In this document: piece after piece, positions 1 through 62,912 of the stretch
How the letters are laid out: the number at the start of each line of letters is the position of its first letter
Position numbering within the stretch: the first letter of the stretch is position 1
DNA from: an uncultured Actinomycetes bacterium
Lineage (GTDB): Bacteria > Actinomycetota > Acidimicrobiia > IMCC26256 > DASPTH01
Assembly (NCBI GenBank): GCA_963756895.1
Contig: CAVWPI010000007.1
Location: 281,230-345,229 of the forward strand
Direction: 5' to 3'
Length of the DNA stretch: 64,000 nucleotides
The notes under the pieces: generated by a model
Database searches by the model: none
The model's input: the letters and a program-made list of their open reading frames with translations, nothing else
What the model was told of the DNA's origin: nothing
Translations under genes and position numbers: made by a program

Positions 1-654
1 TGATGGGCGAGTTCCTCCCCGACGACGGCATCATCGGCACCGTCACGCTGCTGATCGGGGGCGGGTTCGACACCACGACGTCGTTGCTCGCCGGCGCGCT
101 CGAGTGGCTCGACACGCCGCGTCGACGAGCGTGTGCGCCTGGTCGACGACACCGACTACATGAACACCGCCACCGAGGAGTTCCTGCGTTACTTCACGCC
201 CGCGCAGGGCGGAGGGCGCACGATCACGCAGGACTGCGAGGTCGCCGGGTTCCCGTTCTCGGCGGGCGACCGCATGTTCCTGTCGTACGCGATGTGCAAC
301 CACGATCCCGCGTCGTTCCCCGAGCCCGACGAGATCGTGCTCGACCGGTTCCCGAACCCGCACGCCGCATTCGGCCTGGGCGTGCACCGCTGCATCGGGT
401 CCAACCTGGCCCGGCTCGACTTCAAGATGATGCTGCGGGAGGCACTGGCGCGCATGCCCGACTACCGCATCGACCGCGCCGGCGTGGAGCAGTACGAGTC
501 GATCGGCACCATCAACGGCTACAAGCACCTCCCGGCGACGTTCACGCCCGGCCGGCGTGAGGGTCCACCACTCGCCGAGGTGCTCGACATGTGGCAGGCG
601 AAGCTCGACGTCGAGCCCGCACCCGAGAACCTGCGCGCGGAAGCGGGTTCGTGA
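1..654 (+). CDS. Cytochrome P450, C-terminal part (truncated by window edge; frameshift near 120)
   Basis: I-helix GGFDTT in ORF 3..560, then ExxR (EEFLR) and heme motif FGLGVHRCIG in ORF 133..654. Confidence 0.92.
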
Positions 655-851
655 TGGCGCGGGCGATCGTGAACGCGGAGCTCTGCCAGGGGCACACGCT
701 CTGCAACATGGCAGCCCCCGACGTCTTCCAACTCCGCGACGAGGACGGCCACGCCTACGTCGTCGTCGACGAGCTGACGCCCGAGCAGCTGCCGGCCGCC
801 CGCAAGGCGGAGCTCGGCTGCCCCGAACGCGCCATCACCGTCGAGGAGTGA
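654..851 (+). CDS. Ferredoxin ([3Fe-4S] type), likely P450 partner
   Basis: CQGHTLC...CPERAI; ATG overlaps the P450 stop (TGATG). Confidence 0.92.
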   Translation: MARAIVNAELCQGHTLCNMAAPDVFQLRDEDGHAYVVVDELTPEQLPAARKAELGCPERAITVEE

Positions 852-18400: not shown

Positions 18401-19117
18401 TCACCGTGCGCGGCATAGTGCGACGCGAGCCGGTGTCTGACCGACGAACCGTTGCAGCGACCGCGTCAGGTGGGCCTGGTCGGCGAAGCCGAGCCGCGTG
18501 GCCACGTCGGGCGGCGACAGGCCTCGCTCGAGTGCGTCGACGGCACCTTCGGCGCGGCCGATCTGTCTGATCGTGCGTCGCGTGAGCCCGGTCGCCCGAG
18601 CGACGCGGCGTTGCAGGGTCCGGGTCGGCAACGCGCCGGCGTCGCCCGGCAACCAGTGGGTGACGACGGGATCGCGAACGATCACGTCGGATTCGACCAG
18701 ACGATCGACGAACACGTCGGCGTTCGCGGGCGTCGGGATCTCCCACCGCGAGCCGTCGATCCAGACCGAGCGCGAGGTGGCGGCGGGGAGCGTCAGCGTC
18801 CGATCGACCAGGCGGTCCAGCGGGAGTGCCGGCGCGAACGCCCCGAGGCTGAACGCGATGCCGAAGAACTCGGCGTCATCGGGGATCGCCGTGATCGTCG
18901 CTCTGGTCTCGGGACCACGGATGGTGACCTGGGCGCGATCGTGTCGCGTCGTGACCACGAGTCGCCACTGACTCGCCGCGACCGAGATGAAGAACGGCTC
19001 GGGCTCGCTCCGAGCGCTCCAGGCGCGATCCACGAACTCGGAATCCGATCCCCAGTCGGCGAGGGTGAACAGCTGCGCGGCCCGCTGCAGATGACCGGGT
19101 TCCTTGCGTCGCATCAC
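18401..19117 (-). CDS. AraC-family regulator
   Basis: RTLQRR...ATGL and GFADQAHLTRSLQRFVGQTP. Confidence 0.85.
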   Translation of the reverse strand: MMRRKEPGHLQRAAQLFTLADWGSDSEFVDRAWSARSEPEPFFISVAASQWRLVVTTRHDRAQVTIRGPETRATITAIPDDAEFFGIAFSLGAFAPALPLDRLVDRTLTLPAATSRSVWIDGSRWEIPTPANADVFVDRLVESDVIVRDPVVTHWLPGDAGALPTRTLQRRVARATGLTRRTIRQIGRAEGAVDALERGLSPPDVATRLGFADQAHLTRSLQRFVGQTPARVALCRAR

Positions 19118-19248
19118 ACCTCCGCCCGCTGATTCATCCCGTCCGACGATGCAGACCGCGGCTCGACGTCGAATTCATCGCGGGCGTGCGTCGGGACCGA
19201 GCAGCCGGTCCAGGGACTCGGTGGTGGTGCGGAACGTACGATCTCTCG

Positions 19249-20430
19249 GTGCCCTCGGCTCCGCCGCGCATCGATCTGCTCGAACCCGACTTCTACGTCG
19301 ACGGCGCCCGCGCGGCATACCGGTGGATGCGACAGCACTCACCGGTGCACTTCGACGAGAAGAACGGATGCTGGGGCATCGCCACCTACGACGGGGTCCG
19401 CCAGGCCGAGGGAAACGCCGCGGTGTTCTCGAGCGCCGGCGGGAGCCGTCCGGAATCCGGGCCGCTCCCCTGGATGATCGACATGGACTCGCCCGAGCAC
19501 CGGAACCGGCGGCGGCTCGTCAGCGGCGCGTTCACCCCGGTGCGTGTACGCGCGAGCGCGCCGGGCATTCGAATCACGTGCGACGAGCTGATCGACGCCT
19601 TCGCGGACCGTGGTGAGTGCGATCTTCGCCGCGACCTGGCGGCCCCGCTGCCGCTGATCGTCATCTGCGACATGTTGGGGGTCCCCGCTGAGGACCGCGA
19701 CGCGATGTTGCGCTGGTCGGACGCGCTGCTCGGCGCGTTGAACGGCGGCGCGGCCGAGATGGAGGCCGCGGCGGCTTCCTTCGCCGACTACGCCGAGTAT
19801 GCGCACGCGATGATCGCCGATCGACGCGCGCACCCGGGTGACGATCTCGTCAGCGTGCTCGTCCACGGTGAGGTCGACGGTGTCCGACTCCGCGACGACG
19901 AGATCATGTTCGAAGCCCTGCTCCTCCTCCTCGGAGGCGACGAGACCACGCGGAACGTGACGTGCGGCGGCGTCGAGGCATTGCTGGCACACCCCGATCA
20001 GCGACAACGGTTGGCGGACGACCCCCGGTTGCTGGGAGGTGCCGTCGAGGAGGCGCTGCGGTGGGTGTCGCCGATCAAGAACATGAAGCGCACCGTCACC
20101 CGCGACGTCGAATTCGGCGGACAACGACTCCGCGAGGGGGACTCGACGCTCCTGCTGTACGAATCGGCGAACTTCGACGAGGCACAGTTCGACGAGCCTG
20201 ACCGCTTCGACGTGGAGCGGTCACCCAACGAGCACGTCGCGTTCGGCTTCGGCTCGCACTTCTGCCTCGGTGCGCACCTCGCCCGGCTCGAGCTGCACAC
20301 CGTCTTCGAACGAGTGTTGACCCGCCTCCCCGGCCTGGAGCTCGCCACCGCCGGGCCGCCGCCACGCTCCCTCACCGGCATCTCGGAGATGCCGGTGCGT
20401 TTCACCCCCACGCCCCGACTGACGGTCTGA
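19249..20430 (+). CDS. Cytochrome P450 (Cyp142-like)
   Basis: GGDETTR, EEALRW, FGFGSHFCLG. Confidence 0.92.
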   Translation: MPSAPPRIDLLEPDFYVDGARAAYRWMRQHSPVHFDEKNGCWGIATYDGVRQAEGNAAVFSSAGGSRPESGPLPWMIDMDSPEHRNRRRLVSGAFTPVRVRASAPGIRITCDELIDAFADRGECDLRRDLAAPLPLIVICDMLGVPAEDRDAMLRWSDALLGALNGGAAEMEAAAASFADYAEYAHAMIADRRAHPGDDLVSVLVHGEVDGVRLRDDEIMFEALLLLLGGDETTRNVTCGGVEALLAHPDQRQRLADDPRLLGGAVEEALRWVSPIKNMKRTVTRDVEFGGQRLREGDSTLLLYESANFDEAQFDEPDRFDVERSPNEHVAFGFGSHFCLGAHLARLELHTVFERVLTRLPGLELATAGPPPRSLTGISEMPVRFTPTPRLTV

Positions 20431-49065: not shown

Positions 49066-50425
49066 TCAGACGCCGGCGTGGAGCGGGAGCACGACAGTGA
49101 AGGCCGCCCCGGGAGCGTTCTCGACGGCGACCGAACCGCCGTGGGCGACGACGACGTCGTGCACGATGGCGAGACCGAGCCCGGCGCCGCCACCGTCGCG
49201 CCCGCGCGCGTCGTCGAGCTTGGCGAAGCGCTCGAAGACCCGCTCACGGTCGGCATCGGGGATGCCGGGACCGTCGTCGACGACCCGCAGGGTGACGTCG
49301 GTGCTCGACTCGACGAGCGACACGACCACCTCCGAACGCGCGTGGTGCGCGGCGTTGTCGAGCAGGTTGCGCACGACGCGCAGGAGCTGGTCGGCGTTGC
49401 CGTCGACCTGCGCGCCCGACACCGCGCTCGGTGTCGACGGCGAGCGCGCTGCTCGTGTGGAGACGACGGGTCTCGGCGAGGACGATCTCGTCGAGGTCGA
49501 CCGGCGCCCGGTGCGCGGCGTCGAGTGCCGACGCGTCGACGACGGCGATGGCGAGCAGGTCGTCGACGAGTCGCTGCATCCGGATCGCGTCGGCGAGGAC
49601 CTCCCGCTCCGTTGTCTGCCAGTCGGCGAGCTCCGGGTGCTCGAGGTCGACCTCGAGCTGCGCGCGGATCCCGGTGAGCGGGCTGCGCAGCTCGTGGCTG
49701 GCGTCGGCGACGAAGCGCCGTTGCCGATCGGTGGCGTCCTCGAGGCGGACGAGCATGGCGTTCATCGTGCGGGCGAGACGGCCGATCTCGTCCTCGCTGG
49801 CCGGTTCGGGCACGCGTCGGTGCAGGTCCTCGGCGCCGATGACCTCGACCTCCTGGCGGATCGCCTCCACCGGACGGAGCGCACGGCCGGTCACCACCCA
49901 GGTGACGGCGCCCATGAGCACGAGGAGCGCCGGCACCGCCCACCACAGCAGCCGCACCAGGCTGTCGGTGCTCCGGGCCACGCCCTCGAGGCTGCGCGCC
50001 ACGTAGACCACGTACGACCCGGTCGCCGTCTCGACCCGCCGCGCCACGACTCGGTACGGGCCGTCGCCCTGCCGCCCGATGCCAGCCACGGTGTGCGCGG
50101 CGTAACCGTCGGCGTCGGGATCCAACCGGCTGATGCGGACGTCACCGGGGATGTTCGCCGACGCGTCGACGACCACGCCATTGCCGTCGACGACCTGCAC
50201 GAGGTTCTCGTCGCCGCGCGGTACGGCCAGCGGATTGCGGAAGTCGCCGTCGTCGACCGCGGCGGCGATGTCCTGGGATCGCAACCGGGCGGTGGTCTCG
50301 AGATTCTTCGTGAGGGTGCTGCGGTGCGCGTGCACCAACCAGAACGAGCCGACCACGAGCGCGGCGCCGACGACGATCACCGCCGCCGCGGTGATGCGGA
50401 CCCGCACCGTCGCTAGTCGTCGCAC
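49066..50425 (-). CDS. HAMP sensor histidine kinase; frameshift near 49425
   Basis: ADASHELRSPL, NLLDNA, DDGPGI, GAGLGL. Confidence 0.92.
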
Positions 50426-50428
50426 GGG

Positions 50429-51106
50429 TCAGCCGCCTTCCGGATCGAGCCGGTAGCCCGCGCCGCGGATGGTCTCGATCAGCTGCTTCCCGAACGGCTC
50501 GTCGAGCTTGCGCCGCAGATGGCGGATGTAGACCTCGACGATGTTGGGGTCGCCCTCGAACGCGAAGTCCCACACGTTGTCGAGGATCTCGCCCTTCGAC
50601 ACGACCTCCCCGGCGCGCCGCAGCAAGAACTCGAGGACCGCGAACTCGCGCGCGGTGAGCGACACCTCGACGTCGCCGCGGCGACACCGATGGGTGACCG
50701 GATCGACCGCGAGGTCACCGGCGGTGTACACGACCGGCCGGGCGCGGCCGGTGCGGCGGAGCAAGGCCCGCAGTCGAGCCAGGAGCACGACGAACGAGAA
50801 CGGCTTGGTGAGGTAGTCGTCGGCCCCGGTGTCGAGGGCTTCGGCGTGGTCGTACTCGCCGTCTTTCGCGGTCAGCATCAGGATCGGTGTCCAGTTGCCG
50901 CCGTCCCGGAGCTGCTCGCACACCCGGTACCCGTTGATGCCGGGCAGCATGATGTCGAGCACGATGACGTCGTAGGGGTGCTCGGTCGCCATCCAGAGCC
51001 CGTCGGTGCCCGTGAGCGCCACGTCGACCGCGAAGCCCTCCGCCTCCAGGCCGCGCCGAACCGCCCCCGCGACCTTCTTCTCGTCCTCGACGATGAGCAC
51101 GCGCAC
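50429..51106 (-). CDS. OmpR-family response regulator
   Basis: VEDE, LDIMLP, DYLTKPF, TIRGAGY. Confidence 0.93.
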   Translation of the reverse strand: MRVLIVEDEKKVAGAVRRGLEAEGFAVDVALTGTDGLWMATEHPYDVIVLDIMLPGINGYRVCEQLRDGGNWTPILMLTAKDGEYDHAEALDTGADDYLTKPFSFVVLLARLRALLRRTGRARPVVYTAGDLAVDPVTHRCRRGDVEVSLTAREFAVLEFLLRRAGEVVSKGEILDNVWDFAFEGDPNIVEVYIRHLRRKLDEPFGKQLIETIRGAGYRLDPEGG

Positions 51107-51130
51107 CGGCAGCAGCGTGCTCCGTCGTTC

Positions 51131-51158
51131 CTGAAGACCTGCTGAACGCGCGCTGATC
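51131..51158. promoter_or_regulatory. OmpR-type triple binding site in a divergent promoter
   Basis: CTGAAG, CTGAAC, CTGATC at 51131, 51142, 51153. Confidence 0.6.
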
Positions 51159-51225
51159 GCAGAGAGTCGACAAAATGGTCACCACTGGGTCACGATGCGC
51201 ATCCGCAGACCGCGCAGGGGGACAC

Positions 51226-52977: not shown

Positions 52978-53649
52978 TCAATCTGTGGGTGACGAAGGAT
53001 CCTGGGCGTCCACGTGTTCGGGCTCCTTCCGTTCTTCCTCGTGAGGCGCGGACTCTCGCCAATGACCGATGCCTTCATTCGTCGCGAAGGTGGCGACAAG
53101 GAGCGCTGCCGCGGCATCGGTCCACCACCAGCCGAGCGAAGCGTTGAGGACCAGCGCGATGAGGATGCCGGTACTCAGACACCCATCGAGGAAGGTCATA
53201 CCCGCTTCGGCCTGGAGGGGTTCGCTCCCGAGTTCGTCGGCTGTCACGCGTTTGAGTCTGGCGAGGCCAAACATGATGAGCGCGGTGACACCCAGATAGG
53301 CGATGCCGAGAGGTGAGTGGTCGGGTCGATCACCTCGGATCAGGGCGCGTGTACTTACGATGGCGAGGAAGAGGGCTAGCAACCAGAACGCCGCTGCGAT
53401 CAGGCGGAGCGCTCGGTGCACTCGCCGATCGCCGGGGTCACGACGTTTGTCGTGAAGGTTCCTGATCACGACCATGGACGCGAAGATCTCGATGATTGAG
53501 TCGAGTCCGAAGGCGATCAGGGCGAGCGACCCGGCCTCCACGCCGAGCGAGATGGTGACCACCACCTCCATCGAGTTCCAGGCATTGGTTGCCCATTCGA
53601 GACGGACGCCGCGTCGGCGCAGCTTCTCGATCGTCGCGGGCTTCGTCAC
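52978..53649 (-). CDS. Cation-efflux (CDF-like, TM-only) transporter
   Basis: GSLALIAFGLDSIIE, LGSEPLQAE, LGWWWTD. Confidence 0.85.
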   Translation of the reverse strand: MTKPATIEKLRRRGVRLEWATNAWNSMEVVVTISLGVEAGSLALIAFGLDSIIEIFASMVVIRNLHDKRRDPGDRRVHRALRLIAAAFWLLALFLAIVSTRALIRGDRPDHSPLGIAYLGVTALIMFGLARLKRVTADELGSEPLQAEAGMTFLDGCLSTGILIALVLNASLGWWWTDAAAALLVATFATNEGIGHWRESAPHEEERKEPEHVDAQDPSSPTD

Positions 53650-53696
53650 TTCACCATTGGCGCACAGGGCTCCTCCATCGCAAGGTCGCGGCGTCC

Positions 53697-55082
53697 TCAC
53701 TGCGGGGGCGCCAGCCACACGCAGAGGCTCACATCGCGCCGTCGTGCGCGTCGTTCGCGGCGTCGCCGACCGAGAAGAGCGACTTCTTGAAATCCTCGCG
53801 CCGCATACAGGATCAGGATCGGCATGACCACAGATCGAAACCGCTCACCCCGTCCGCCGGTGGCTTCAGGTCCCGCCGAGACCAGAAGAACGTAGGCCGC
53901 GACTCCCACGACGAAGACATGCGCGAGCAGACGTCGGCGCGCGCGGACCACCAGTACGAGGCCGTACAGGAAGAGTGCATAGAAGCAGGCGAGCAAGAGC
54001 GTGCCCGCGTCCTCGAGCGTGCCCGATGCCGGCGGCAGGCCCAGGTAGGCGAAGGTACGGGACCGGGTGCTGTCGATCTCGTCCAGCAGGCCTCGGACTG
54101 CACCTTCGGCAGCTTCCCACGGTTGTGCGGCAAGGATGTGCAGTCCTTGTCGGTACATCCGTCCGAAGTACGCGCCTTGACTTTCACCCGGGTGGCTGCC
54201 GAGCCGCATGAGCAAGCGCCGCTGCGCAGCATTGAGACTGATCCCGTCCTCGTCGGCGACGACACCTGCCCCTCGGAACAAGTCGAGGTTCTTCGCCTCG
54301 ACCGCGCTGAACCGCCATGAGTTCACCGTTTCGTGGTTTCTGAACTGCCAGCCCCCGACGATCACGATCACCGGAAGCAGGAACACCGCGATCATGCGGG
54401 CGCCGTGTCGCAGCGTCTCCCGTCGGCGCAGAGCCTGATACACCAGGAGCGCGGTGACGAACAGCGGAAGGTAGTACGTCACCGGTCGCACCATCGTCGC
54501 GGTCGCCGCCGCGATTCCCAGTAGGAACGGCCACCGCAGCTTCGGTCTCTCCTGGGTGAACATGACGAAGCCGATCGCGACGACGAGCACGAGAAGCAGC
54601 GTGTCGAGGCTCTCGCTCAGGATCGTTCCCGCGGAATACCACTGCAACGGCTCCAATGCAGTCATGCCCGCGGCGAGCAAGCCGACCGATACCGACCACA
54701 TGCGCGCACCAATGAGGTAGACGATGAGCACGGTCACGGTGCTGAGGAGGACCTGCATCAGCAACAAGGCGGCATGGCTCTGACCGAAGATCCAGTACAC
54801 GGTTGCGATGAACGCCGGATAGCCGGGCGTTCGCAGGAATTCGGCTCGGGCATCCTGCGGGCTCCGGGAGAAGTGCCCGTCCTCGAGCAATGCCAGTGCG
54901 GGCTGTTCGTAGGTCGGGGTGTCCGCTTGGGTCACGACGTGCGGGTCGGTGTCGAGCACCGCGGCGACTGCGCCCGCGCGTAGGAGGAAGCACAATCCGA
55001 GGATGACTACGAGCAGCACCCGCTGGGATCGAGCTGCGGGCCTGCGTCGCACCGACGGTGCCGCGTCACTCTGCAGTGCCAC
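53697..55082 (-). CDS. GT-C (PMT_2/ArnT-like) membrane glycosyltransferase
   Basis: DTPTY, RTPGYP, LSESL, MVRP, ERFR; multi-TM. Confidence 0.8.
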   Translation of the reverse strand: MALQSDAAPSVRRRPAARSQRVLLVVILGLCFLLRAGAVAAVLDTDPHVVTQADTPTYEQPALALLEDGHFSRSPQDARAEFLRTPGYPAFIATVYWIFGQSHAALLLMQVLLSTVTVLIVYLIGARMWSVSVGLLAAGMTALEPLQWYSAGTILSESLDTLLLVLVVAIGFVMFTQERPKLRWPFLLGIAAATATMVRPVTYYLPLFVTALLVYQALRRRETLRHGARMIAVFLLPVIVIVGGWQFRNHETVNSWRFSAVEAKNLDLFRGAGVVADEDGISLNAAQRRLLMRLGSHPGESQGAYFGRMYRQGLHILAAQPWEAAEGAVRGLLDEIDSTRSRTFAYLGLPPASGTLEDAGTLLLACFYALFLYGLVLVVRARRRLLAHVFVVGVAAYVLLVSAGPEATGGRGERFRSVVMPILILYAARGFQEVALLGRRRRERRARRRDVSLCVWLAPPQ

Positions 55083-55373
55083 CCACCCATCATGCTCCCG
55101 ATCTCCCGCATTCGCGCGTCCAGCGCACGGCTGACAGGTCAGAGCGTGCTGACGAAGATCTTGGCGATGCCGAGGATCAGGCGGTAGACGGCGAAACGGC
55201 AGGAGCGTTCACGTCCCGACCAGTGGGCGAGGGCTTGGGTCGCACCCAGACGCAGGCAGCAAGACCCGCCGCCCCCAAGTTCTCGCGCTCTTCTTGCCCG
55301 GCGTTAACCCGCCACTCGTACAGTCGGCGCCGCCGGGTGATCATCCGGCGGCGCCGATACGAACGAGGGGCGC

Positions 55374-55688
55374 GTGGCACCACAACGACCCGCGGACCGC
55401 GACAACGGCATGCGCCGAATCTCGTCGACGACGCGCTGGCTTGCCGGCTCTGGGGTTGCGCTCGTCGCTGCGTTCTCGTTGTTCTTTGCCGAGCGGGCGT
55501 CTTCGTCTTCCGGGAGCAACGCCCCGTCGGTGAACACACCGGTGGTGACCGCACCTCCGGCGACGTCACCTGCCGTGACCGATGGCGGTTCGAGGTCGGC
55601 GTCGCCAGTGCAGCCCACGCAGCCGGCGCAGACCGCGCCCCCCGTCACGTATCCGCCGCAGCGCCATACGCGCTCGGGCGGCTCGTAG
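55374..55688 (+). CDS. Membrane-anchored Pro/Ser/Thr-rich protein ending HTRSGGS
   Basis: RBS GAGGGG; single TM after TTRWLAG; low-complexity linker. Confidence 0.72.
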   Translation: MAPQRPADRDNGMRRISSTTRWLAGSGVALVAAFSLFFAERASSSSGSNAPSVNTPVVTAPPATSPAVTDGGSRSASPVQPTQPAQTAPPVTYPPQRHTRSGGS

Positions 55689-55703
55689 CCGCGTCAGGCG
55701 CTG

Positions 55704-56876
55704 GTGAATCCGGTCCTCGCGCTTTCCGGTGGCACGGTGACGTGGTACGTCGCGCGGGCGACAGGTGTCGTCACCCTCGGGTTTCTCACCACGAGCGTGC
55801 TACTCGGGATCCTGACGTCGTTCCGTTGGAGCAGTCCCGCCTGGCCGCGCTTCGTCGTCGAGTTCGTGCACCGCAATGTCTCGCTGCTGGTACTCGTCTT
55901 CCTGGCCATCCACGTGGTGTCGGTCGTCGTCGATTCGTTTGCGCCGATTCGTTGGATCGACGTGGTGATCCCCTTCGTGTCTGCGTACCGGCCGTTCTGG
56001 CTTGGCCTCGGCGCTGTCGCCTTCGACCTGCTGATCGCGTTGGTGGTGACCAGCCTCGTGCGTCACCGGATCGGCTTCGCGACTTGGCGATTTGTGCATT
56101 GGCTTGCGTACGCGTGCTGGCCGGTCGCGGTGTTGCACGGTCTCGGGACCGGCTCCGACACGACGACGGGGCTGGTGCTGGCGTTCACGGCAGTGTGCGT
56201 CGTCGCGGTGCTGGTTGTCGCCGGACTGCGCGTCGGTGCCGGCCTGGCGTCGCGCCCGGGCGGGCGCGCGCTCGGTTTCGCCGCGGTGACGGTCGCCCCA
56301 GTGCTGCTCGTCATCTGGTTGTTCTCGGGTCCGCTTGCCGATGGGTGGGCCCGCAAGGCCGGGACGCCTGACAGCGTCCTCGCCGCGGTGTCGGGCACCA
56401 CGGGTTCGGGCACGGCTGGGGCGGGTGCGGCGCCGAGCTCCGGGAGCAAGGCCACGCCGACGCAAACCGCCACGTTCGCGACGGTCGGGTTTGCTGCCAC
56501 TGCTCAGGGCACGCTGCACGAGCGTGCGGCCGACGCGAAGGGGCAAGTGGTGCTGAGTCTCGCCGGCACTCTGTCGAACGGTGCGACCGGCAGCGTCGAC
56601 GTCGAGCTCACCGGCACCCCTCTTTCCGATGGCGGCGTGTCGATGCACTCGGGCACGGTCACCCTTTCCGACGGCACCAACTCGTATCGAGGTGCCGTGG
56701 TCGGTCTGGGCTCGGCGCAGGTGATCGCCGACATGCCAGGCCCAGGCGGGGCGTCGTGGCGGGTGAACATCGACTTCACGCAGCTCGATCAGCAACGCGG
56801 CGTGATGACCGCTGCCGTACACGTCGGTCAGAGTGCTCGAATCCCGCCTGGCGACGACGACGATGGCGGCGAGTGA
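55704..56876 (+). CDS. Ferric-reductase/MsrQ-like cytochrome b with a C-terminal extracytoplasmic extension
   Basis: WYVARATG; four His (VHR, IHV, VHW, LHG); extra TM, linker and beta-rich domain. Confidence 0.82.
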   Translation: MNPVLALSGGTVTWYVARATGVVTLGFLTTSVLLGILTSFRWSSPAWPRFVVEFVHRNVSLLVLVFLAIHVVSVVVDSFAPIRWIDVVIPFVSAYRPFWLGLGAVAFDLLIALVVTSLVRHRIGFATWRFVHWLAYACWPVAVLHGLGTGSDTTTGLVLAFTAVCVVAVLVVAGLRVGAGLASRPGGRALGFAAVTVAPVLLVIWLFSGPLADGWARKAGTPDSVLAAVSGTTGSGTAGAGAAPSSGSKATPTQTATFATVGFAATAQGTLHERAADAKGQVVLSLAGTLSNGATGSVDVELTGTPLSDGGVSMHSGTVTLSDGTNSYRGAVVGLGSAQVIADMPGPGGASWRVNIDFTQLDQQRGVMTAAVHVGQSARIPPGDDDDGGE

Positions 56877-58164
56877 TGAGCACCGATGCGCCCGCGGGTC
56901 TGCCACGCCTGCTCGCCGCACCACCGCGCGATCACCACGACCACGTCGCGCGCTACGGTCCGCTCCCCGAGCTCCGTCGACACACAGAGCGCGCCGAGTT
57001 CGTCGCCATCGTCGAGCGCAGCGGCCTGCGCGGCCGTGGCGGTGGTGGCTTCCCGACCGGCCGCAAGCTGCGCGCCGTCGCCGACCGCAGGCGCCATCCC
57101 ATCGTGGTGGCCAACGGCGCCGAGGGCGAGCCCGCGAGCCGCAAGGACCCGCGTTGTTGCAGCGCGCGCCGCACCTGGTGATCGACGGCGCTGCCGTCGC
57201 GGCCCGGGCGGTCGGCGCCGAGGAGATCCATTTCGTCGTCGACCGGGGCGATGGCGCCGGCCGCGATGCGCTCGAAGCCGCGCTCGCGGTCCCGGGTCGG
57301 GGAGATGCCACGTCCCGGACGCTTGGCGTGTCGCCGTCGTGCCGAGCCGCTACGTGGCCGGCGAGGAGAGCGCGGTCGTCAACTTCCTCAACGGCGGCGA
57401 CGCCAAGCCGGTCTCGGTGCCGCCGCGCCCTTACCAGCGGGGAGTGCGCGGCCGGCCCACCCTGGTGCAGAACGTCGAAACGCTGGCCAACCTCGCGCTC
57501 GTCGCTCGCTTCGGGGCCGAGTGGTACGGGTCGGTCGGCACCACCGACGAGCCCGGGTCCGTCCTCACCACCACGGTGGGTGCCGTCGCCCGTCCCGGCG
57601 TGTACGAGTTCGCGCTCGGCACGCCGTTCACCCGGGTGATCGAGTCGGCCGGCGGGCCCACCGAACCGCTCGGCGCGGTTGCTCGTCGGCGGCTACTTCG
57701 GCACCTGGCTCGGCCTCGAAGCCGCCGAGAGGCTCGTGCTGGCACACGGGGTGCTGCGCCAGGCCGGCGCGACGCTCGGATGCGGCGTCGTGGCCGCGCT
57801 CCCGATGCTGAGCTGCGGTGTCGTCGAGACGGCACGCGTCGCCCGCTACCTCGCTTCTGAAACCGCGGGCCAATGCGGACCCTGCGTGCACGGACTCGGC
57901 GCCATCGCGTCCGCCCTCGAAGCTCTCGCCGTTGCACGGGCGCCGCGGGGAACCGTCGCCACCGTCGAACGCTGGCTCGGCGACGTCGCCGGGCGCGGTG
58001 CGTGCCACATGCCCGACGCAGTCGTAGGGTTCGTGCGCTCGTCGCTCGCAGTGTTCGCGGACGACTACCTCCTGCACGAACGCAAGGGGCCGTGCGCGGC
58101 GACGGCCCACGCTCCGGTGCTCCCGCTGCCCGACTCGGCAACGCGCGATGGGAGCTGGCGATGA
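56876..58164 (+). CDS. Stand-alone NuoF-like NADH:FMN/[4Fe-4S] protein; about three frameshifts
   Basis: GLRGRGGGGFPTG, NGAEGEP, YVAGEESA, NVETLA, GQCGPC...C across frames. Confidence 0.85.
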
Positions 58165-58370
58165 GCAAGCGACTCGCAGTCGACATGATCAGGTGCGACG
58201 GCCACGGCATCTGCGCCGAGCTCTTCCCCGAGTGGGTGCGGCTGGACGACTGGGGCTACCCGATCATCGACGGGCACGACATCACCCCGGCGCTGCTCGC
58301 CCATGCCCGCCGGGCGGTGACCGCGTGCCCGTCGCTGGCGCTGCGGCTCGAAAAGGGGAACGGAGCATGA
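58161..58370 (+). CDS. Ferredoxin
   Basis: CDGHGIC...DDWGYP...CPSLAL; ATGA overlap. Confidence 0.9.
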   Translation: MSKRLAVDMIRCDGHGICAELFPEWVRLDDWGYPIIDGHDITPALLAHARRAVTACPSLALRLEKGNGA

Positions 58371-58825
58371 GGGGCAAGCAGCAGGCGACGTTCGAGCGCG
58401 AGCTTGCGGCGTCGACGCTGTTCGCCGCGCTCTCGCCCGAGCAGATCCACAACCTCGCCCGTACCGCCACACGCGTGCACGAACCAAAGGGCATGGTGTT
58501 CTCGAAAGAGGGCGAACGCGGCGATGAGATCGCCGTGCTGCTCGAGGGCGCGGTCGAGATCCGGCACGGCGACGCGGTGCTCGCGCAGCTCGGTCCGGGC
58601 GAGCACTTCGGCGAGATGGCTTTGCTCGACGACACCGCCCGCCGTTCGGCGACGGTGGTCGCGATCACGCCGGTAGTCGTCGCCTACCTGTCACGCCACC
58701 ACTTCGACACGCTGCTGGCCACGACTCCCTCGATCCGCGCCGCGGTCGAGCGCGTGTTGCACGAGCGGTCCGCGGTCCCGGAAGCGCCATCGCGCCGGTA
58801 CGCGCCCAAGGAAACGACCTGCTGA
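58367..58825 (+). CDS. Stand-alone cyclic-nucleotide-binding protein
   Basis: EGERGD, LGPGEHFGEMALL, RSATVVA; ATGA overlap. Confidence 0.88.
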   Translation: MRGKQQATFERELAASTLFAALSPEQIHNLARTATRVHEPKGMVFSKEGERGDEIAVLLEGAVEIRHGDAVLAQLGPGEHFGEMALLDDTARRSATVVAITPVVVAYLSRHHFDTLLATTPSIRAAVERVLHERSAVPEAPSRRYAPKETTC

Positions 58826-59286
58826 CGCTCCGCGACGAACGCCACGCACGCCGGCCCGATCGGGCAATGAAGTGGTCGGCGGGTTCCGGCAACAGACCGC
58901 TCGACGCCCGACCGCAGATCAGGGACGCTCGCGATCGCCCCGAAGTCGGACACCGTTGTCGATTCGGGTTCGGAGAAGGAACCAAGACCGCCGGGATGTG
59001 GACCAGGAAGAGCGTGGAGCGTGCGTCTGGCGTACCCTCGAGCGCCGGCGATCCAGGTGTGTCGGAGGGGGACTCGTCGCTCATTCTGCGCGCTCCTGCT
59101 CACGACAGCTCCAATCACTGTATGAGAGACTCGACTGATCTCCCGGCGGTCACCTTCGGCTCCGGGCAGCCTCTCGGTGTCGCAGAGCTGACGACACTGA
59201 CCGAACGCGGGTGCTGGAGCGCACAGCCTGCGCGCTGCCTCAACCCCTTCACGCTCACTGCAGTGCGACCACATTCCCCGTGGGGG

Positions 59287-59850
59287 TCAGTTGGGAGCGC
59301 CCGAGTCATCAGCGCCGGCCCTGGCGGCGCGGCGCGGCGACCAAACGCGTACAAGCGTCATCGTGAGGACGACGGCTGCACTGATCAAGCAGGCCCACTG
59401 GAAGAGTGAGTTGTGGCGGTCGGTTCCTGCTGTGAGACCGTGCACGGTTGCGACGACGAAGACGATGTAGCTGGTGAGGTGAACGGCATGCCAGCGGTGT
59501 CGCGGAATGCGCCGCATCATGAGCGACGTGATCTCGACGGCAAGGAGCAGGTACATCGCGATGACGCCGAGGGCCACCGCCGCGGGCTTGTAGCTCGATG
59601 CGAACGGGAGGAGGAAGTCGGCCGGTCCGAAGCCGATGAACTGGTCGAGCGCGAGGCCGAGGAGGTGAACACCGAGGAACACCACTGCCAGTCCTGCGAC
59701 GAAGCGGTGAACGTCGAGGGTCCACGCGGGAGCGGGCTTGCGTAGCAGTCGAGTCGAGAGTTGCAGCCCGCCCACGACTGCGAGGGTGGCCAGCGCCCAT
59801 GAGACGATCCCGCCCGCGCGGGCCATGTACCACCATGTGTGTGAGCGCAT
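59287..59850 (-). CDS. Second ferric-reductase/MsrQ-like cytochrome b (TM only)
   Basis: WWYMARAGG; four His (VHR, VHL, VHL, VHG); AGTD. Confidence 0.85.
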   Translation of the reverse strand: MRSHTWWYMARAGGIVSWALATLAVVGGLQLSTRLLRKPAPAWTLDVHRFVAGLAVVFLGVHLLGLALDQFIGFGPADFLLPFASSYKPAAVALGVIAMYLLLAVEITSLMMRRIPRHRWHAVHLTSYIVFVVATVHGLTAGTDRHNSLFQWACLISAAVVLTMTLVRVWSPRRAARAGADDSGAPN

Positions 59851-59875
59851 CTGACTCGAGCCTAAGGGGCCCGGC

Positions 59876-60307
59876 TCAGCTGCCGCGGGTGGTCGTGTGC
59901 GCGACCTGCGGTGTCGTCGAACGAGTCGTTGCTTTCTGCGCCGCCGACGACGCTGGCGTTGCCGCGGTCGCCGGCTGCGCTGCGGGCCTCGCAGTGACCG
60001 CCGTGCCCGTGGGCTGCGCCGCGGGCATGTTGCCCTGGTTCGCCACCGCGACCGTTCCACCGATCGCGAGGAACGACGCAACACTCAGCCCGCCGAGGAG
60101 CCACCGCGTCGCGGCGGCAGGGTGCCGACGGCGAGCCCGCTTCGGGGGCAGCCCGGGTTTCGACGACGTCTGCACCGGCGCGGGCGAGTCACAATTTGCG
60201 TTTGCGGTGGGCGCAGCCGCGCGCTTCGCCGTCTGCGCCGACGCGGCGCGGCGCTCCTGCAGCCGACGGATGCGCTCCGCGCGTTCGAGGTCGTTGGGGT
60301 CAGTCAT
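59876..60307 (-). CDS. Membrane-anchored Ala/Thr/Pro-rich protein ending HTTTRGS
   Basis: RRRHPAAATRW followed by one TM and a low-complexity linker. Confidence 0.75.
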   Translation of the reverse strand: MTDPNDLERAERIRRLQERRAASAQTAKRAAAPTANANCDSPAPVQTSSKPGLPPKRARRRHPAAATRWLLGGLSVASFLAIGGTVAVANQGNMPAAQPTGTAVTARPAAQPATAATPASSAAQKATTRSTTPQVAHTTTRGS

Positions 60308-60614
60308 CGTGTGCTCCGCTGCGTGCGTTCGATCGGACGGTCGGGTTCGTGGTCGCTCGGGCCGAAGGGCGCCCGGTGTCGTCGTGCTCCCTCGCAGTGA
60401 CGTGCGGGTCGGCGACGTTCGCCGTGGTCGTCGGCTGGTTCTGGTTCGCGGCCGGCGCCGGGACGGTCACGGCTGCGGGGCTCGTGCGCGCTGTGGGCGC
60501 GACCGCGGCCGACCCGAACCCGAGGGCGCCCAGGTGAGCGCCGACGAACACCACGCCCGAGAGCAGGCTCATCGAGATGGCGGATGCCGCGGCCACTGCG
60601 GTTCGTCGCTGCAT
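60300..60614 (-). CDS. Small exported Ala/Thr-rich protein with repeated HDD tail
   Basis: RBS AAGGAGG; signal-like N-terminus; EHDD and AHDD. Confidence 0.65.
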   Translation of the reverse strand: MQRRTAVAAASAISMSLLSGVVFVGAHLGALGFGSAAVAPTARTSPAAVTVPAPAANQNQPTTTANVADPHVTAREHDDTGRPSARATTNPTVRSNARSGAHDD

Positions 60615-60677
60615 CGTTCCTCCTTCGGCGGCTGGCTCGGCCGAGCCCGGTTGCTGTTGTGCACAGACAACGCCGCG

Positions 60678-60721
60678 CCCATGAAGGCCCCCGAGCGGCG
60701 CCCGTGAAGCTCCCGTGAAGG
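60678..60721. promoter_or_regulatory. OmpR-type direct repeats in a divergent promoter
   Basis: CCC(A/G)TGAAG at 60678, 60701, 60712. Confidence 0.6.
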
Positions 60722-60780
60722 CTCGGCCCCGGGAGTCCAGACTCCGTTCCTCGCCCGGCACGCACTCCTACGCTTCGACC

Positions 60781-61473
60781 ATGCCCAAGCGCGTGCTCGT
60801 CGTCGACGACGAAGATCGGATTCGTTCCGTCGTGCGGGGTTACCTGGAGAACGACGGGTACGAGGTCGCCGAGGCGAGCGACGGCGAAGCGGCCATCCGG
60901 GTCGAGCAGGATTGGCATCCCGATCTCGTGGTCCTCGACGTGATGATGCCTGGAGTCGACGGGCTCGAGGTGCTCCGTCGACTCCGCACCCGGTCGGAGG
61001 TGCCGGTGATTCTGCTCACGGCGCGCTCGGAGGAGGTTGACAAGCTCGTGGGCCTGGCGGTTGGCGCCGACGACTACGTCACGAAGCCCTTCAGCCCCCG
61101 CGAGCTCGTTGCCCGCGTCAAGACCGTGCTGCGGCGTCGGGTGGGGCAGGTGGCCGAGACCTCGGAGCGGCTCGAGTTCCCGCGGCTCGTGATCGACGTC
61201 GGCGCCCGCGAGGTCCGTCGCAACGGTGAGTCCGTCGAGCTGAGCGCGCTCGAGTTCGATCTCCTGGTCGCGCTCGCTCGCACTCCCGGTCGTGTGCAGA
61301 CGCGCAGCCAGTTGCTCGAGAGGGTATGGGGATACGACTTCTTCGGCGACGAGCGCGTCGTCGACGTCCACATCCGCAGCATTCGTAAGTCCCTCGGTGA
61401 CAACGCGGAGGCACCCGAAATCATCGGCACGGTGCGCGGTGTCGGGTACAAGTTCGTGGCTTCGAGACCGTGA
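60781..61473 (+). CDS. OmpR-family response regulator
   Basis: VVDDE, LDVMMP, DYVTKPF, TVRGVGY. Confidence 0.93.
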   Translation: MPKRVLVVDDEDRIRSVVRGYLENDGYEVAEASDGEAAIRVEQDWHPDLVVLDVMMPGVDGLEVLRRLRTRSEVPVILLTARSEEVDKLVGLAVGADDYVTKPFSPRELVARVKTVLRRRVGQVAETSERLEFPRLVIDVGAREVRRNGESVELSALEFDLLVALARTPGRVQTRSQLLERVWGYDFFGDERVVDVHIRSIRKSLGDNAEAPEIIGTVRGVGYKFVASRP

Positions 61474-62912
61474 GGCGTCTGTGGCGTCGCCTCGACGTGC
61501 GTCTGTTCGCCTCCTACGCGCTGGTCGCGTTGGTCGTGATCGGTGCGCTCTGGGTCACCGTGAGCCTCGTCGCGCCGGCGCAGTTCGACGACGAGTTTCG
61601 GGCCACCGCGACCTCACACGAGGGAGCGGAGGAGCGTGAGGCCGAGGGGCATTCCGTCTTCGTCAGCGCCCTCCGGTCGTCGCTGCCATACGCGCTGGCC
61701 GCGAGCTTCGCCGCCGCCGCCATCGTGTCGGTGCTCGTGGCGCGCAAGATCCTCCGTCCGGTGCGACAGGTGCGCAGAGCGACGCGTCGGCTCGCAGCCG
61801 GCCATTACGACGAACCGATAGAGGAGCCCGCGGAGCTGGAGCTCGCTGAGCTCGCGCGTGACGTGAACCTGCTCGCAGTGCAGCTGCAGACCATCGAACG
61901 GCGCCGGGCTCGCCTGATCGGCGAGGTCGCGCACGAGCTGCGTACACCGCTCACCACCATCGAGGGCCTCGTCGAAGGGATGCTCGACGAGGTGTTCGAG
62001 CCGAACGAAGAGGTGTTGACCTCACTGGCCGAGGAGGCCACGCGACTCCAGCGCCTGGCTTCCGATCTCTCAGAGTTGTCGCGGGCGGAAGAGGGCGCGA
62101 TCGTGCTCGACCTCGAATCGGTTGATCTGGGTGAGCTCGCGGAGGCGTGCGCGAACCGCCTCCGACCCCAGTACGAGGACAAGCACGTCGAGCTCGAGGT
62201 CCGGGCGTACCCGTCGCTCCCGGTCCGAGTCGACCCGGATCGGATCATGCAGGTGCTGACCAACCTGTGCGGAAACGCACTCACCTACACGCCGGCGCGC
62301 GGTCGCGTCGTCGTGACCGCGAGCCGTGACGGTGACATCGCGCGCGTCGCGGTGGCCGATACCGGCGTCGGCCTCGGAGCGGGGGACCTCGAGCTCGTCT
62401 TCGACCGCTTCTATCGGGTTCCCGGGCCCGCCCGGCCAACGGGCGGAAGCGGGATCGGTTTGACGATCGCGCGCGGACTGGCCCACGCACACCACGGCGA
62501 CGTGCGCGCGTCCTCGCCGGGTCCGGGCCGTGGGTCGACCTTCACGCTGTCGCTCCCCACCGCCTCAGCCAACGACGCCGCGCTGAGCTTCACGGGGCCT
62601 TCGGGCGACGTGCTTCACGTCGAGGACAAGGACGAACACCCGGATTTGACTACACAGGTGCACGGGTGGGTTCCTCGCGAGAGTCCCTCAGGTCGCCCTC
62701 GATCGGGGGCTCGCGCACGCGACCGACGCGGGCGTGGCCGACCGGATCGTGTGGGCGCGCCACGACTTCTCGCGCTCGATCCCCGAGGGCCCGTTCGACC
62801 TGGTGTCCGCGCACTTCCTGCACTCGCCCGTCGACGACCCCCGCGATCCGGCCCTGCGGGCGGCCGCCGGCGCCGTCGCGCCGGACGGCACCCTGCTCGT
62901 GGTGAGCCATGA
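61470..62912 (+). CDS. BaeS-like HAMP histidine kinase; ORF reads through into repeat copy 2
   Basis: HELRTPL, NLCGNA, DTGVG, GSGIGL; domain ends near 62560 (FTLSLP). Confidence 0.88.
   Translation: MRRLWRRLDVRLFASYALVALVVIGALWVTVSLVAPAQFDDEFRATATSHEGAEEREAEGHSVFVSALRSSLPYALAASFAAAAIVSVLVARKILRPVRQVRRATRRLAAGHYDEPIEEPAELELAELARDVNLLAVQLQTIERRRARLIGEVAHELRTPLTTIEGLVEGMLDEVFEPNEEVLTSLAEEATRLQRLASDLSELSRAEEGAIVLDLESVDLGELAEACANRLRPQYEDKHVELEVRAYPSLPVRVDPDRIMQVLTNLCGNALTYTPARGRVVVTASRDGDIARVAVADTGVGLGAGDLELVFDRFYRVPGPARPTGGSGIGLTIARGLAHAHHGDVRASSPGPGRGSTFTLSLPTASANDAALSFTGPSGDVLHVEDKDEHPDLTTQVHGWVPRESPSGRPRSGARARDRRGRGRPDRVGAPRLLALDPRGPVRPGVRALPALARRRPPRSGPAGGRRRRRAGRHPARGEP

Follow-up and report, generated by a model that had tools for sequence, protein, structure and literature searches.

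Electron transfer beyond the cytosol by flavinylated proteins is known, and genomes with 'orphan' apbE genes remain (Méheust 2021, eLife, PMC8238504). The systems described there on bioinformatic grounds include 'MsrQ-like' flavinylation clusters, 31 of them with a NuoF-like protein, so the association of FRD proteins (Ferric_reduct, PF01794) with NuoF-like proteins is already published; the same paper cites the idea of MsrQ and Fre as a 'two-component NOX-like' system (NOX, NADPH oxidase). The motif of the flavinylating enzyme ApbE is [S/T]GA[S/T] (Huang et al. 2024, mSystems, PMC11334425), and the accepted ApbE substrates named in the literature examined all have a folded domain around the flavin. 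Here we analyse a window of 64,000 nucleotides (the whole stretch of DNA studied) from contig CAVWPI010000007.1 of an uncultured Actinomycetes bacterium of the Acidimicrobiia, in which genes for an FRD cytochrome b, a NuoF-like protein and a ferredoxin are preceded by the gene of a small, single-helix membrane protein, which we call a tether. We propose, with confidence a little better than even, that this cluster (module 1) encodes a split NOX-like transmembrane electron conduit of the 'MsrQ-like', flavinylation-associated kind, equipped with a flavin-tail tether; the flavinylation step, taken by itself, seems to us evenly balanced.

Module 1 consists of five genes on the + strand (GC content around the locus is about 68-72%, and reading frames were picked by GC at third codon positions, GC3, together with Pfam matches):

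55374-55688, + strand: tether1, 104 aa, without a Pfam family
55704-56876, + strand: cytb1, the FRD cytochrome b, 390 aa, Ferric_reduct PF01794
about 56873-58164, + strand: NuoF-like protein, with Complex1_51K, SLBB and NADH_4Fe-4S matches across three frames
58161-58370, + strand: ferredoxin, 69 aa, Fer4_15 PF13459, E 5e-10
58367-58825, + strand: stand-alone cyclic-nucleotide (cNMP)-binding protein, 152 aa, PF00027, E 1e-18

These five genes and the three of a facing run (module 2, below) had been laid out in a preliminary description made from the sequence alone, and both the Pfam matches and our reading of the junctions agree with its coordinates for all eight. The overlaps of stops and starts that it reported are genuine: as read from the DNA, they are GTGATGA between cytb1 and NuoF-like, ATGA both between NuoF-like and ferredoxin and between ferredoxin and cNMP, and 8 nt between the first two genes of module 2. 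Its four-His reading also holds, the translations of both PF01794 members containing four His paired as H-x13-H and H-x12-H, as does its remark that the NuoF-like gene stands without other nuo genes, its neighbours being an FRD cytochrome and a ferredoxin.

Module 1 resembles the clusters of Méheust 2021 in joining a PF01794 di-haem membrane protein to a NuoF-like (PF10589) cytosolic donor, in its occurrence mostly in Actinobacteria, in its linkage to ApbE in orthologous loci, and in a flow of electrons proposed to run from NAD(P)H to the outside. It differs from them in three respects: where those clusters typically have a gene with an FMN-binding domain (FMN, flavin mononucleotide), no such gene was found, its position being taken by a tail-tagged protein with no domain; the window's cluster has no ApbE, and the ApbEs of the related loci seem to have no signal peptide; and cytb1 carries an extra helix and a beta-barrel.

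The arrangement is widely conserved. When 40 relatives were searched with the C-terminal part of the NuoF-like protein, orthologues of at least 50% identity turned up in 14 genomes; 12 loci were fetched, and in all 12 FRD, NuoF-like and ferredoxin follow one another in identical order, with the cNMP gene present in 9 and module 2 alongside in only 3. A broader scan, for which nine intact NuoF-like proteins were aligned, yielded 558 relatives, from which 80 loci were kept, spanning Actinomycetes, Acidimicrobiia, Solirubrobacterales, Chloroflexota, Dormibacterota and one metagenome-assembled genome of Acidobacteriota; the counts that follow take in only loci with enough flank ('eligible'). The FRD gene immediately precedes NuoF-like in 69 of 74 loci (the exceptions being L056, L063, L069, L072 and L085), ferredoxin immediately follows it in 74 of 77, and both are adjacent in 66 of 72. 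The expectation in the preliminary description that these genes would co-occur elsewhere is therefore borne out by a trio found in relatives across phyla, and, judged from comparative sequence, this gene order is far beyond chance given its recurrence across phyla. A response regulator or kinase is found in 41 of 59 loci. The cNMP protein, which had been counted as part of the system, is instead lineage-specific, a cNMP gene lying downstream in 7 of the 72 wider loci.

Immediately upstream of FRD in the wider loci stands either a tether-like open reading frame (ORF) or ApbE. ApbE lies upstream of FRD on the same strand in 42 of 68 loci (Pfam confirmed it in 9 of 20 sampled), and the link to ApbE flavinylation drawn in the preliminary description was an apt one. 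Where ApbE is present, the tether-like ORF nearly always stops at or just before the ApbE start, typically overlapping it, to give the order tether, ApbE, FRD, NuoF-like, ferredoxin (for example, in L047). An ORF with a single transmembrane (TM) helix and low complexity abuts ApbE or FRD in 52 of 62 loci; tethers with the strict C-terminal tag [ST]x[GA][ST] occur in 32 of the 62 and with a relaxed tag in 47, against a background of 1.5% (strict) and 3.5% (relaxed) among 8907 ORFs of at least 60 aa in the same loci. Typical endings are VVSGGS, ASSGGS, AVSGAS, VTSGGSG and SSGSHGGG, and an adjacent tagged tether is found in 31 of the 40 eligible loci that bear ApbE. In two loci (L058 4256-5467, Acidobacteriota; L073 4655-5461, Chloroflexia) the protein preceding ApbE is not a tagged tether and has a YceI domain (a lipocalin-like barrel).

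Tether1 itself begins with a basic N-terminus (DRDNGMRRISSTTRW), continues with its single TM helix and a linker rich in Ser, Thr, Pro and Ala, and ends in HTRSGGS-COOH; inspection of charges by eye under the positive-inside rule, with no predictor, places the N-terminus inside and the C-terminus outside. No Pfam or NCBIfam family matched it, and its 30 closest database homologues are all unnamed or 'hypothetical' and all end in H/Q-[TS]-x-[ST]-x-x-S. A profile built from 20 tethers, run against 1.84 billion representatives, retrieved 1303 clusters at E<=1e-3; of the 150 best, 143 carry the strict tag at their C-terminus and 126 the form [ST]G[GA]S, counts that are partly circular in that the profile includes the tag. 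Members of the family end in SGGS, SGAS, SGAT or SGGT, and the ends of tether1 (SGGS) and of tether2 in module 2 (TRGS) are near, not exact, matches to the ApbE motif. With FMN_bind matching none of the 20 tethers, even at E<=1, the tail looks like an ApbE motif in which Gly often replaces Ala, and which ends a disordered tail in place of an FMN-binding domain.

Two kinds of flavinylated peptide invite comparison. The engineered Flavin-tag, 12 residues at a protein terminus that are flavinylated by ApbE (PMC9400968), is likewise a short terminal peptide with an S-G-A-T-like core and no folded flavin domain, and a cytosolic, signal-less ApbE suffices for it; unlike the tethers, it is man-made (GVDGLSGATLTS) and has three residues after the modified Thr, whereas in the tethers the candidate Ser is terminal and Gly usually replaces Ala. 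In the FMN_red proteins, for which the modification has been confirmed experimentally, the site of flavinylation is an unstructured extension at the C-terminus (PMC11334425). These proteins share with the tethers a motif on a disordered C-terminal stretch, the flavinylation of the tethers being predicted; their tail, however, folds back on its own flavin-binding domain, whereas the tether tail would hang from a single membrane helix. In the accessible parts of the flavinylation literature (Méheust 2021, Huang 2024, the Flavin-tag paper and work on multi-flavinylated proteins) we found no description of a domain-less, membrane-tethered terminal tag or of a split FRD. Méheust 2021 discarded genes without a predicted signal peptide (PMC8238504), and this filter may be why the tether variant was not described there.

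Two further ideas about tether1 were dropped. A twin-arginine signal (MRRISS) was considered, and the RR is not kept in homologues, which have RK, RQ or HK; a read-through fusion of tether1 to cytb1, which share a frame across a 15 nt gap, was set aside because the tether/FRD pair of other loci lies in different frames or has ApbE between, and the stop is kept in all relatives. The tethers preceding ApbE in L089, L095, L096 and L151 have Cys-flanked tail ends (CHTSASGTFLGCW, CYSTPSGHVTCI, CAGSQC) in place of SGGS, which may be disulfide-looped tags.

In the window, neither ApbE nor FMN_bind is encoded beside either module. The genome to which the window belongs (82% complete, in 16 contigs) has a single ApbE, on contig C8 among unrelated genes and split into two frames by a frameshift, and contains no match to PF04205 (FMN_bind) at E<=0.01 and none to PF03116 (NqrB/RnfD) or PF10029 (DUF2271). 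It holds four FRD genes, three of which have a tagged tether directly upstream. Because no other known substrate family was found in this genome, and because tether stops overlap ApbE starts in other loci, the tether is likely an ApbE substrate; where the preliminary description took it for a passive anchor, it would instead be both this and, likely, the missing first helix of the FRD. Of the two FRD genes outside the window, one, on contig C4 (L114 6249-7425, − strand), forms a third tether/FRD pair, with a tether ending in ESHTSTGGS and no NuoF-like or ferredoxin gene alongside; the other, on contig C16 (L113 6218-7273, + strand), has no separate tagged tether upstream, and an in-frame '...RARTAHDD' a few codons before its start recalls the HDD protein of module 2.

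Of 41 relatives, 36 have FRD and 34 have ApbE, which is missing from all five FRD-less genomes; in two FRD holders (G022 and G027) no ApbE was found. FMN_bind occurs in only 4 of the 41, always beside an extra copy of ApbE, and 30 of the 34 ApbE holders have no FMN_bind and are thus 'orphan' in the sense of Méheust 2021, a count whose independence is overstated by kinship. In one relative, G021, FMN_bind, ApbE and FRD form a canonical cluster at 623051-624977 of contig C5, immediately upstream of L016 and a few kb from module 2 and the NuoF operon, so that domain-bearing and domain-less versions coexist in one genome.

The FRD proteins of the NuoF loci come in two sizes: about half have 190-210 aa, and the remainder, including cytb1, have 345-398 aa and add a sixth helix, a conserved GPLxxGWAxxAGTP stretch and an eight-stranded beta-barrel. 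In cytb1 the four His (H56, H70, H132 and H145) are invariant in 25 of 25 aligned homologues; its six TM helices, N-out by the charge rule (again by inspection, with no predictor), are followed by the GPLxxGWAxxAGTP motif in juxtamembrane position, a linker, and the barrel (about residues 263-376), which is placed outside the cytoplasm. No match to MsrQ (NF003831) was obtained for cytb1. AF2 gave a pLDDT of 78.3 for cytb1 and of 86.5 for the barrel modelled alone, and the fold assignments of both rest on VIA-align; Foldseek against the PDB returned no match at E<=0.001 for either model. Residues 11-183 of the cytb1 model align with residues 26-183 of SpNOX (8qta; Z 12.4, rmsd 3.6, 154 aligned), and residues 8-187 with 44-294 of human NOX2 (Z 10.2, rmsd 3.5, 166 aligned). 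The aligned part of cytb1 starts at the beginning of the second NOX helix. Two motifs on the FRD itself that recall flavinylation sites (TGSD in the outer loop, NGAT in the barrel) were dropped as not fitting the motif.

When cytb1 and tether1 were predicted as a complex, with two haems and FMN included, the model reached an ipSAE of 0.85 (0.84-0.86 among runs), against 0.00 for the best control; the mark applied is met by 116 of 157 solved complexes and by 2 of 215 mismatched pairs, and this calibration is rough for the present case, with its own alignments and small molecules. Agreement between runs is 35% of contacts or better, with a partner pLDDT of 54 or more. In the modelled interface, tether residues 8-42 (basic N-terminus and helix) face cytb1 residues 11-30, 46-69 and 152-158, in an orientation that fits an inside N-terminus. 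The model suggests that the tether helix packs where NOX has TM1, and in our reading the tether is what was TM1 in an ancestral FRD with six helices, now separated together with an expanded first outer loop. Like the members of the NOX/FRD superfamily (SpNOX 8qta/8qq7, NOX2, NOX5, DUOX1, STEAP), the cytochrome has the same haem-binding helices with H-x13-H and H-x12-H spacing; its helices align to TM2-TM6 of NOX, with the first helix coming, in the model, from the tether, and, as with MsrQ/Fre, the dehydrogenase is supplied as a separate protein. Unlike NOX, neither cytb1 nor cytb2 has a fused FAD/NADPH domain by Pfam, the C-terminal domain of cytb1 being the beta-barrel; the donor is a NuoF-like FMN/Fe-S protein with a ferredoxin, the first helix is encoded by a gene of its own, and an outer flavin tail is proposed.

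The barrel aligns with PloI4 (7x80; Z 11.4, rmsd 3.6, 117 aligned), with pyocyanin demethylase (5k21; Z 10.6, rmsd 3.4, 110 aligned), and with dirigent proteins, allene oxide cyclase and Diels-Alderases (Z 8-10). This modelled likeness to barrels that bind small molecules hints at a docked planar ligand, hydrophobic or redox-active, or at the tethered flavin itself, a shared fold showing no function.

On the cytosolic side, the pieces of the NuoF-like protein match PF10589 (NADH_4Fe-4S) at E 1.5e-14, and intact orthologues have about 429-440 aa. Like NuoF/Nqo1 of complex I (TIGR01959), the protein has Complex1_51K, SLBB and NADH_4Fe-4S domains and retains the glycine-rich FMN loop and the GEES and NVET motifs of the FMN/NADH site; unlike them, it lies outside any nuo operon, and the intact orthologue of G021 scores 214.2 bits against a TIGR01959 cut-off of 558.65. 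Six Cys are invariant, including C303 and C314 upstream of the cluster motif. A second match to the NuoF-like query, at 30% identity, lies on contig C16. The ferredoxin has the cluster motif C-x2-H-x2-C...C-P, which we take to be the [3Fe-4S]-type motif of actinobacterial ferredoxins. At the start of the window (55-848), a cytochrome P450 fragment adjoins a Fer4_13/Fer4_15 ferredoxin, so other small ferredoxins of the same type exist in the genome; a second P450 lies at 19069-20427.

We picture module 1 as working in the following way. The cytosolic NuoF-like protein would oxidise NAD(P)H at its FMN, and its Fe-S cluster would hand single electrons to the small ferredoxin, which would reduce the inner haem of the FRD cytochrome b, the electron passing on to the outer haem. 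The TM helix of the tether would complete the FRD bundle in trans, in place of TM1 of NOX or MsrQ, and ApbE, encoded elsewhere in the genome, would load FMN on the last serine of HTRSGGS-COOH. The flavin, leashed on a disordered outer tail, could then carry electrons from the outer haem to an acceptor outside, for which the likeliest candidate is a metal ion or a planar, redox-active small molecule bound in the beta-barrel of cytb1. A chain from NADH through Fe-S and haem b to the outside was already proposed in the preliminary description; its core stands, in that NuoF-like and ferredoxin feeding FRD is the best reading of the conserved trio, and the FRD/NuoF-like association itself had already been published (Méheust 2021).

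Several observations weigh against this proposal, and most of them favour a conduit of haems only, which we regard as unlikely. In such a conduit the tether would be structural, providing the first helix and a docking peptide, no flavin would be involved, and the outer haem would pass electrons to O2, Fe(III) or Cu(II), as in NOX or STEAP, with the ApbE of related loci serving some other target or role. The helix packing is the sole part of the tether that is confidently placed in the complex model, which does not position the C-terminal tag with confidence; the tag is non-canonical, with Gly for Ala and the candidate Ser as the very last residue, and that of tether2 (TRGS), without Gly at -2, is more so; ApbE is unlinked in this genus, being absent from this locus and itself frameshifted on another contig; and the His at -6 of the tether1 tail, kept in 28 of 30 homologues of the clade, could be a metal or haem ligand instead of belonging to a transferase site. 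The ApbE genes of the family begin no more than a few codons from the stop of the tether, or from some other stop upstream, and show, by eye, no hydrophobic leader and no room for a signal peptide, whereas the tether tail is predicted outside; this is the chief difficulty for the proposal. With ApbE in the cytosol and the tag outside, FMN would have to be attached to the serine ahead of export, and we infer that such loading of an unfolded tail is possible in principle. That the tethers are a natural, fold-free flavin tag, whose last serine is loaded on leaving the ribosome by a signal-less, cytosolic ApbE, its gene often translationally coupled to that of the tether, before the unfolded tail passes through the translocon to sit as a leash at the outer haem, is an idea that we offer tentatively. 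Against the haems-only view, tether stops overlap ApbE starts across phyla, SGAS and SGAT ends occur within the same tether family, 30 of the 34 ApbE-bearing relatives have no FMN_bind, and no other known substrate family was found in this genome. Two more points count against the flavin-tailed conduit: its relatives are kin and not independent, so that phyletic counts overstate the support, and the cluster ligation of its donor is putative. The canonical ligands of cluster N3 in NuoF are CxxCxxC...C, and in the NuoF-like proteins the first Cys of CxxCxxC is an invariant Ala, the other three Cys being kept.

The donor and the direction of flow might also differ from those we prefer: FRD might be fed by menaquinol, as proposed for MsrQ, or electrons might flow inward to make reduced ferredoxin or NAD(P)H, a pair of options that we hold to be improbable. 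Neither a NuoF-like nor a ferredoxin gene accompanies most tether/FRD pairs (module 2 and the contig C4 pair among them), which must then be served by some other donor, and Méheust 2021 (PMC8238504) states that reversed flow is possible in principle. Yet the near-obligatory adjacency of FRD, NuoF-like and ferredoxin, with coupled stops and starts, argues for a direct partnership, and uphill reduction of NAD+ from an outer flavin would, judging by the redox potentials of the cofactor classes, need an energy input of which no part is seen. Finally, the NuoF-like gene is out of frame in this assembly, through four single-base indels within 530 bp (a deletion after 57148 and insertions near 57286, 57319 and 57677), called by DNA alignment to four intact orthologues (G007, G021, G012 and G014). 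Were these real, module 1 would be a pseudogenised remnant here, a decay which the preliminary description had named as fatal to its reading and which we think very improbable. The frame breaks are concentrated in one gene, and the adjoining operon genes are intact; but GC3 tracks every frame switch and the pieces keep 86-97% protein identity to intact orthologues, so that any decay would be very recent. Short-read soil contigs from other strains, 91-98% identical, are free of each of the four indels (they differ at 24 positions in 57026-57285, 10 in 57197-57495 and 6 in 57449-57721). The same assembly also splits its only ApbE, and different genes of the same operon are split in sister genomes: cytb1 in G007; nuoF and cNMP in G005; cytb1 and nuoF in G002; and tether1, cytb1 and cNMP in G024. 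With 82% completeness in just 16 contigs, the pattern fits an indel-prone assembly, and the four indels are probably assembly errors.

Facing module 1 are the three genes of module 2, on the − strand, and beside them a two-component system:

59850-59287, − strand: cytb2, 187 aa, Ferric_reduct PF01794
60307-59876, − strand: tether2, 143 aa, without a Pfam family
60614-60300, − strand: HDD protein, 104 aa, without a Pfam family
ORF open from 60715, likely ATG at 60781, end at 61473, + strand: response regulator of OmpR/PhoB type, PF00072 and PF00486
61470-62912, + strand: histidine kinase, with HAMP, HisKA and HATPase_c

Cytb2 has five TM helices, N-out with a cytosolic C-terminus (by the charge rule on inspection, with no predictor), its His pairs are H48/H62 and H123/H136, and it scores 16.1 bits on MsrQ (NF003831), below the cut-off of 130. 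Tether2 has a charged helical N-terminus, one TM helix, a linker of Ala, Thr and Pro and the C-terminal residues AHTTTRGS-COOH, its orthologues ending in HTTTRGS, HTTTRAS or HTKTKAS; among the 30 best loci for module-2-type FRD, 20 have a tagged tether directly upstream and most others have ApbE there. The HDD protein combines a signal-peptide-like N-terminus with a low-complexity region and the His/Asp motifs REHDD and, at the C-terminus, GAHDD; an orthologue is found in 4 of the 30 FRD loci, all of them closest module-2 orthologues. Module 2 had been joined with module 1 in a single system. Because orthologues of cytb2 adjoin a response regulator in 11 of the 11 closest loci, and stand by the NuoF operon in only 3 of the 12 relatives' loci, module 2 is, on this comparative sequence evidence, a paralogous tether/FRD unit tied to the two-component system and not a second limb of the NuoF operon; HDD protein, tether2 and cytb2 would be governed by that adjacent system.

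The response regulator scores under every NCBIfam equivalog cut-off. Homology of the histidine kinase stops near 62590, its ORF running about 110 aa longer than those of relatives in low-complexity Arg, Gly and Pro, and this extension (62590-62912) may reflect a lost stop or another indel. A second two-component pair lies at 49247-51178 (− strand), with a kinase ORF that has HAMP and HisKA and no HATPase_c match at E<=1e-5, which may be a further frame break in the assembly. A Cation_efflux (cation-diffusion-facilitator) gene is found near module 1 at 52978-53718 (− strand) of the window, and likewise in L017 (12798-13385) and L025 (5200-5766). Together, this gene and the His/Asp-rich HDD protein are weak hints of metal handling, in line with the VIT1 association described in Méheust 2021 (PMC8238504).

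Three non-coding elements were delimited around these genes:

55274-55340, + strand: conserved non-coding block upstream of tether1, TTCTCGCGCTCTTCTTGCCCGGCGTTAACCC...TACnGT, from an alignment of 7 same-genus/same-family upstream regions
60701-60721, + strand: direct repeat CCCGTGAAG-N2-CCCGTGAAG in the divergent region between the HDD and response-regulator genes
58826-59286, no strand: spacer of 460 bp between the convergent cNMP and cytb2 genes, with no frame-specific GC3 signal

The block upstream of tether1 contains a direct repeat of TTCTYGC at 11-bp spacing, then a -10-like TAnnnT, and an invariant GTTAAC, and is a candidate promoter or regulator site; its repeat has no second copy in the window, chance expectation being 1.6 at 2 mismatches. 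The repeat at 60701-60721 looks like an OmpR-type site, a putative regulator-site role; the window contains 5 copies of CCGTGAAG, where chance would give 2.6 on average, and the CCCGTGAAG repeat is not in the region upstream of module 1, so that no sequence link from the two-component system to module 1 is seen here. In the spacer, only 58906-58973 (68 bp) is conserved, at 87-88%, in two relatives, and an Rfam scan of 54500-61500 at E<=0.1, which includes the spacer, gave no match.

For the window itself the meaning is the more modest one: it holds a member of a recurrent system, with its ApbE moved elsewhere and a broken NuoF-like gene that is most likely an assembly artefact. For the family it would be larger. 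If the proposal is true, proteins of about 100 residues (1303 clusters), with a tag at the end of a disordered leash, would be a new class of ApbE substrate, and a function could be given to numerous small genes that are now unannotated in Actinomycetota, Chloroflexota and Dormibacterota of soils. The evolution of FRD proteins would also gain a new element, a cytochrome of NOX type with its first helix made from another gene and bearing the acceptor cofactor. Whether a pre-modified tail is exported is a testable question raised by the pairing of an outward tag with an ApbE in the cytosol. On the more tentative idea of a natural, fold-free tag, the tether family would be the missing substrate class that accounts for some of the 'orphan apbE' genomes, and monoderm soil bacteria would display covalent flavin on the outside without export of FAD.

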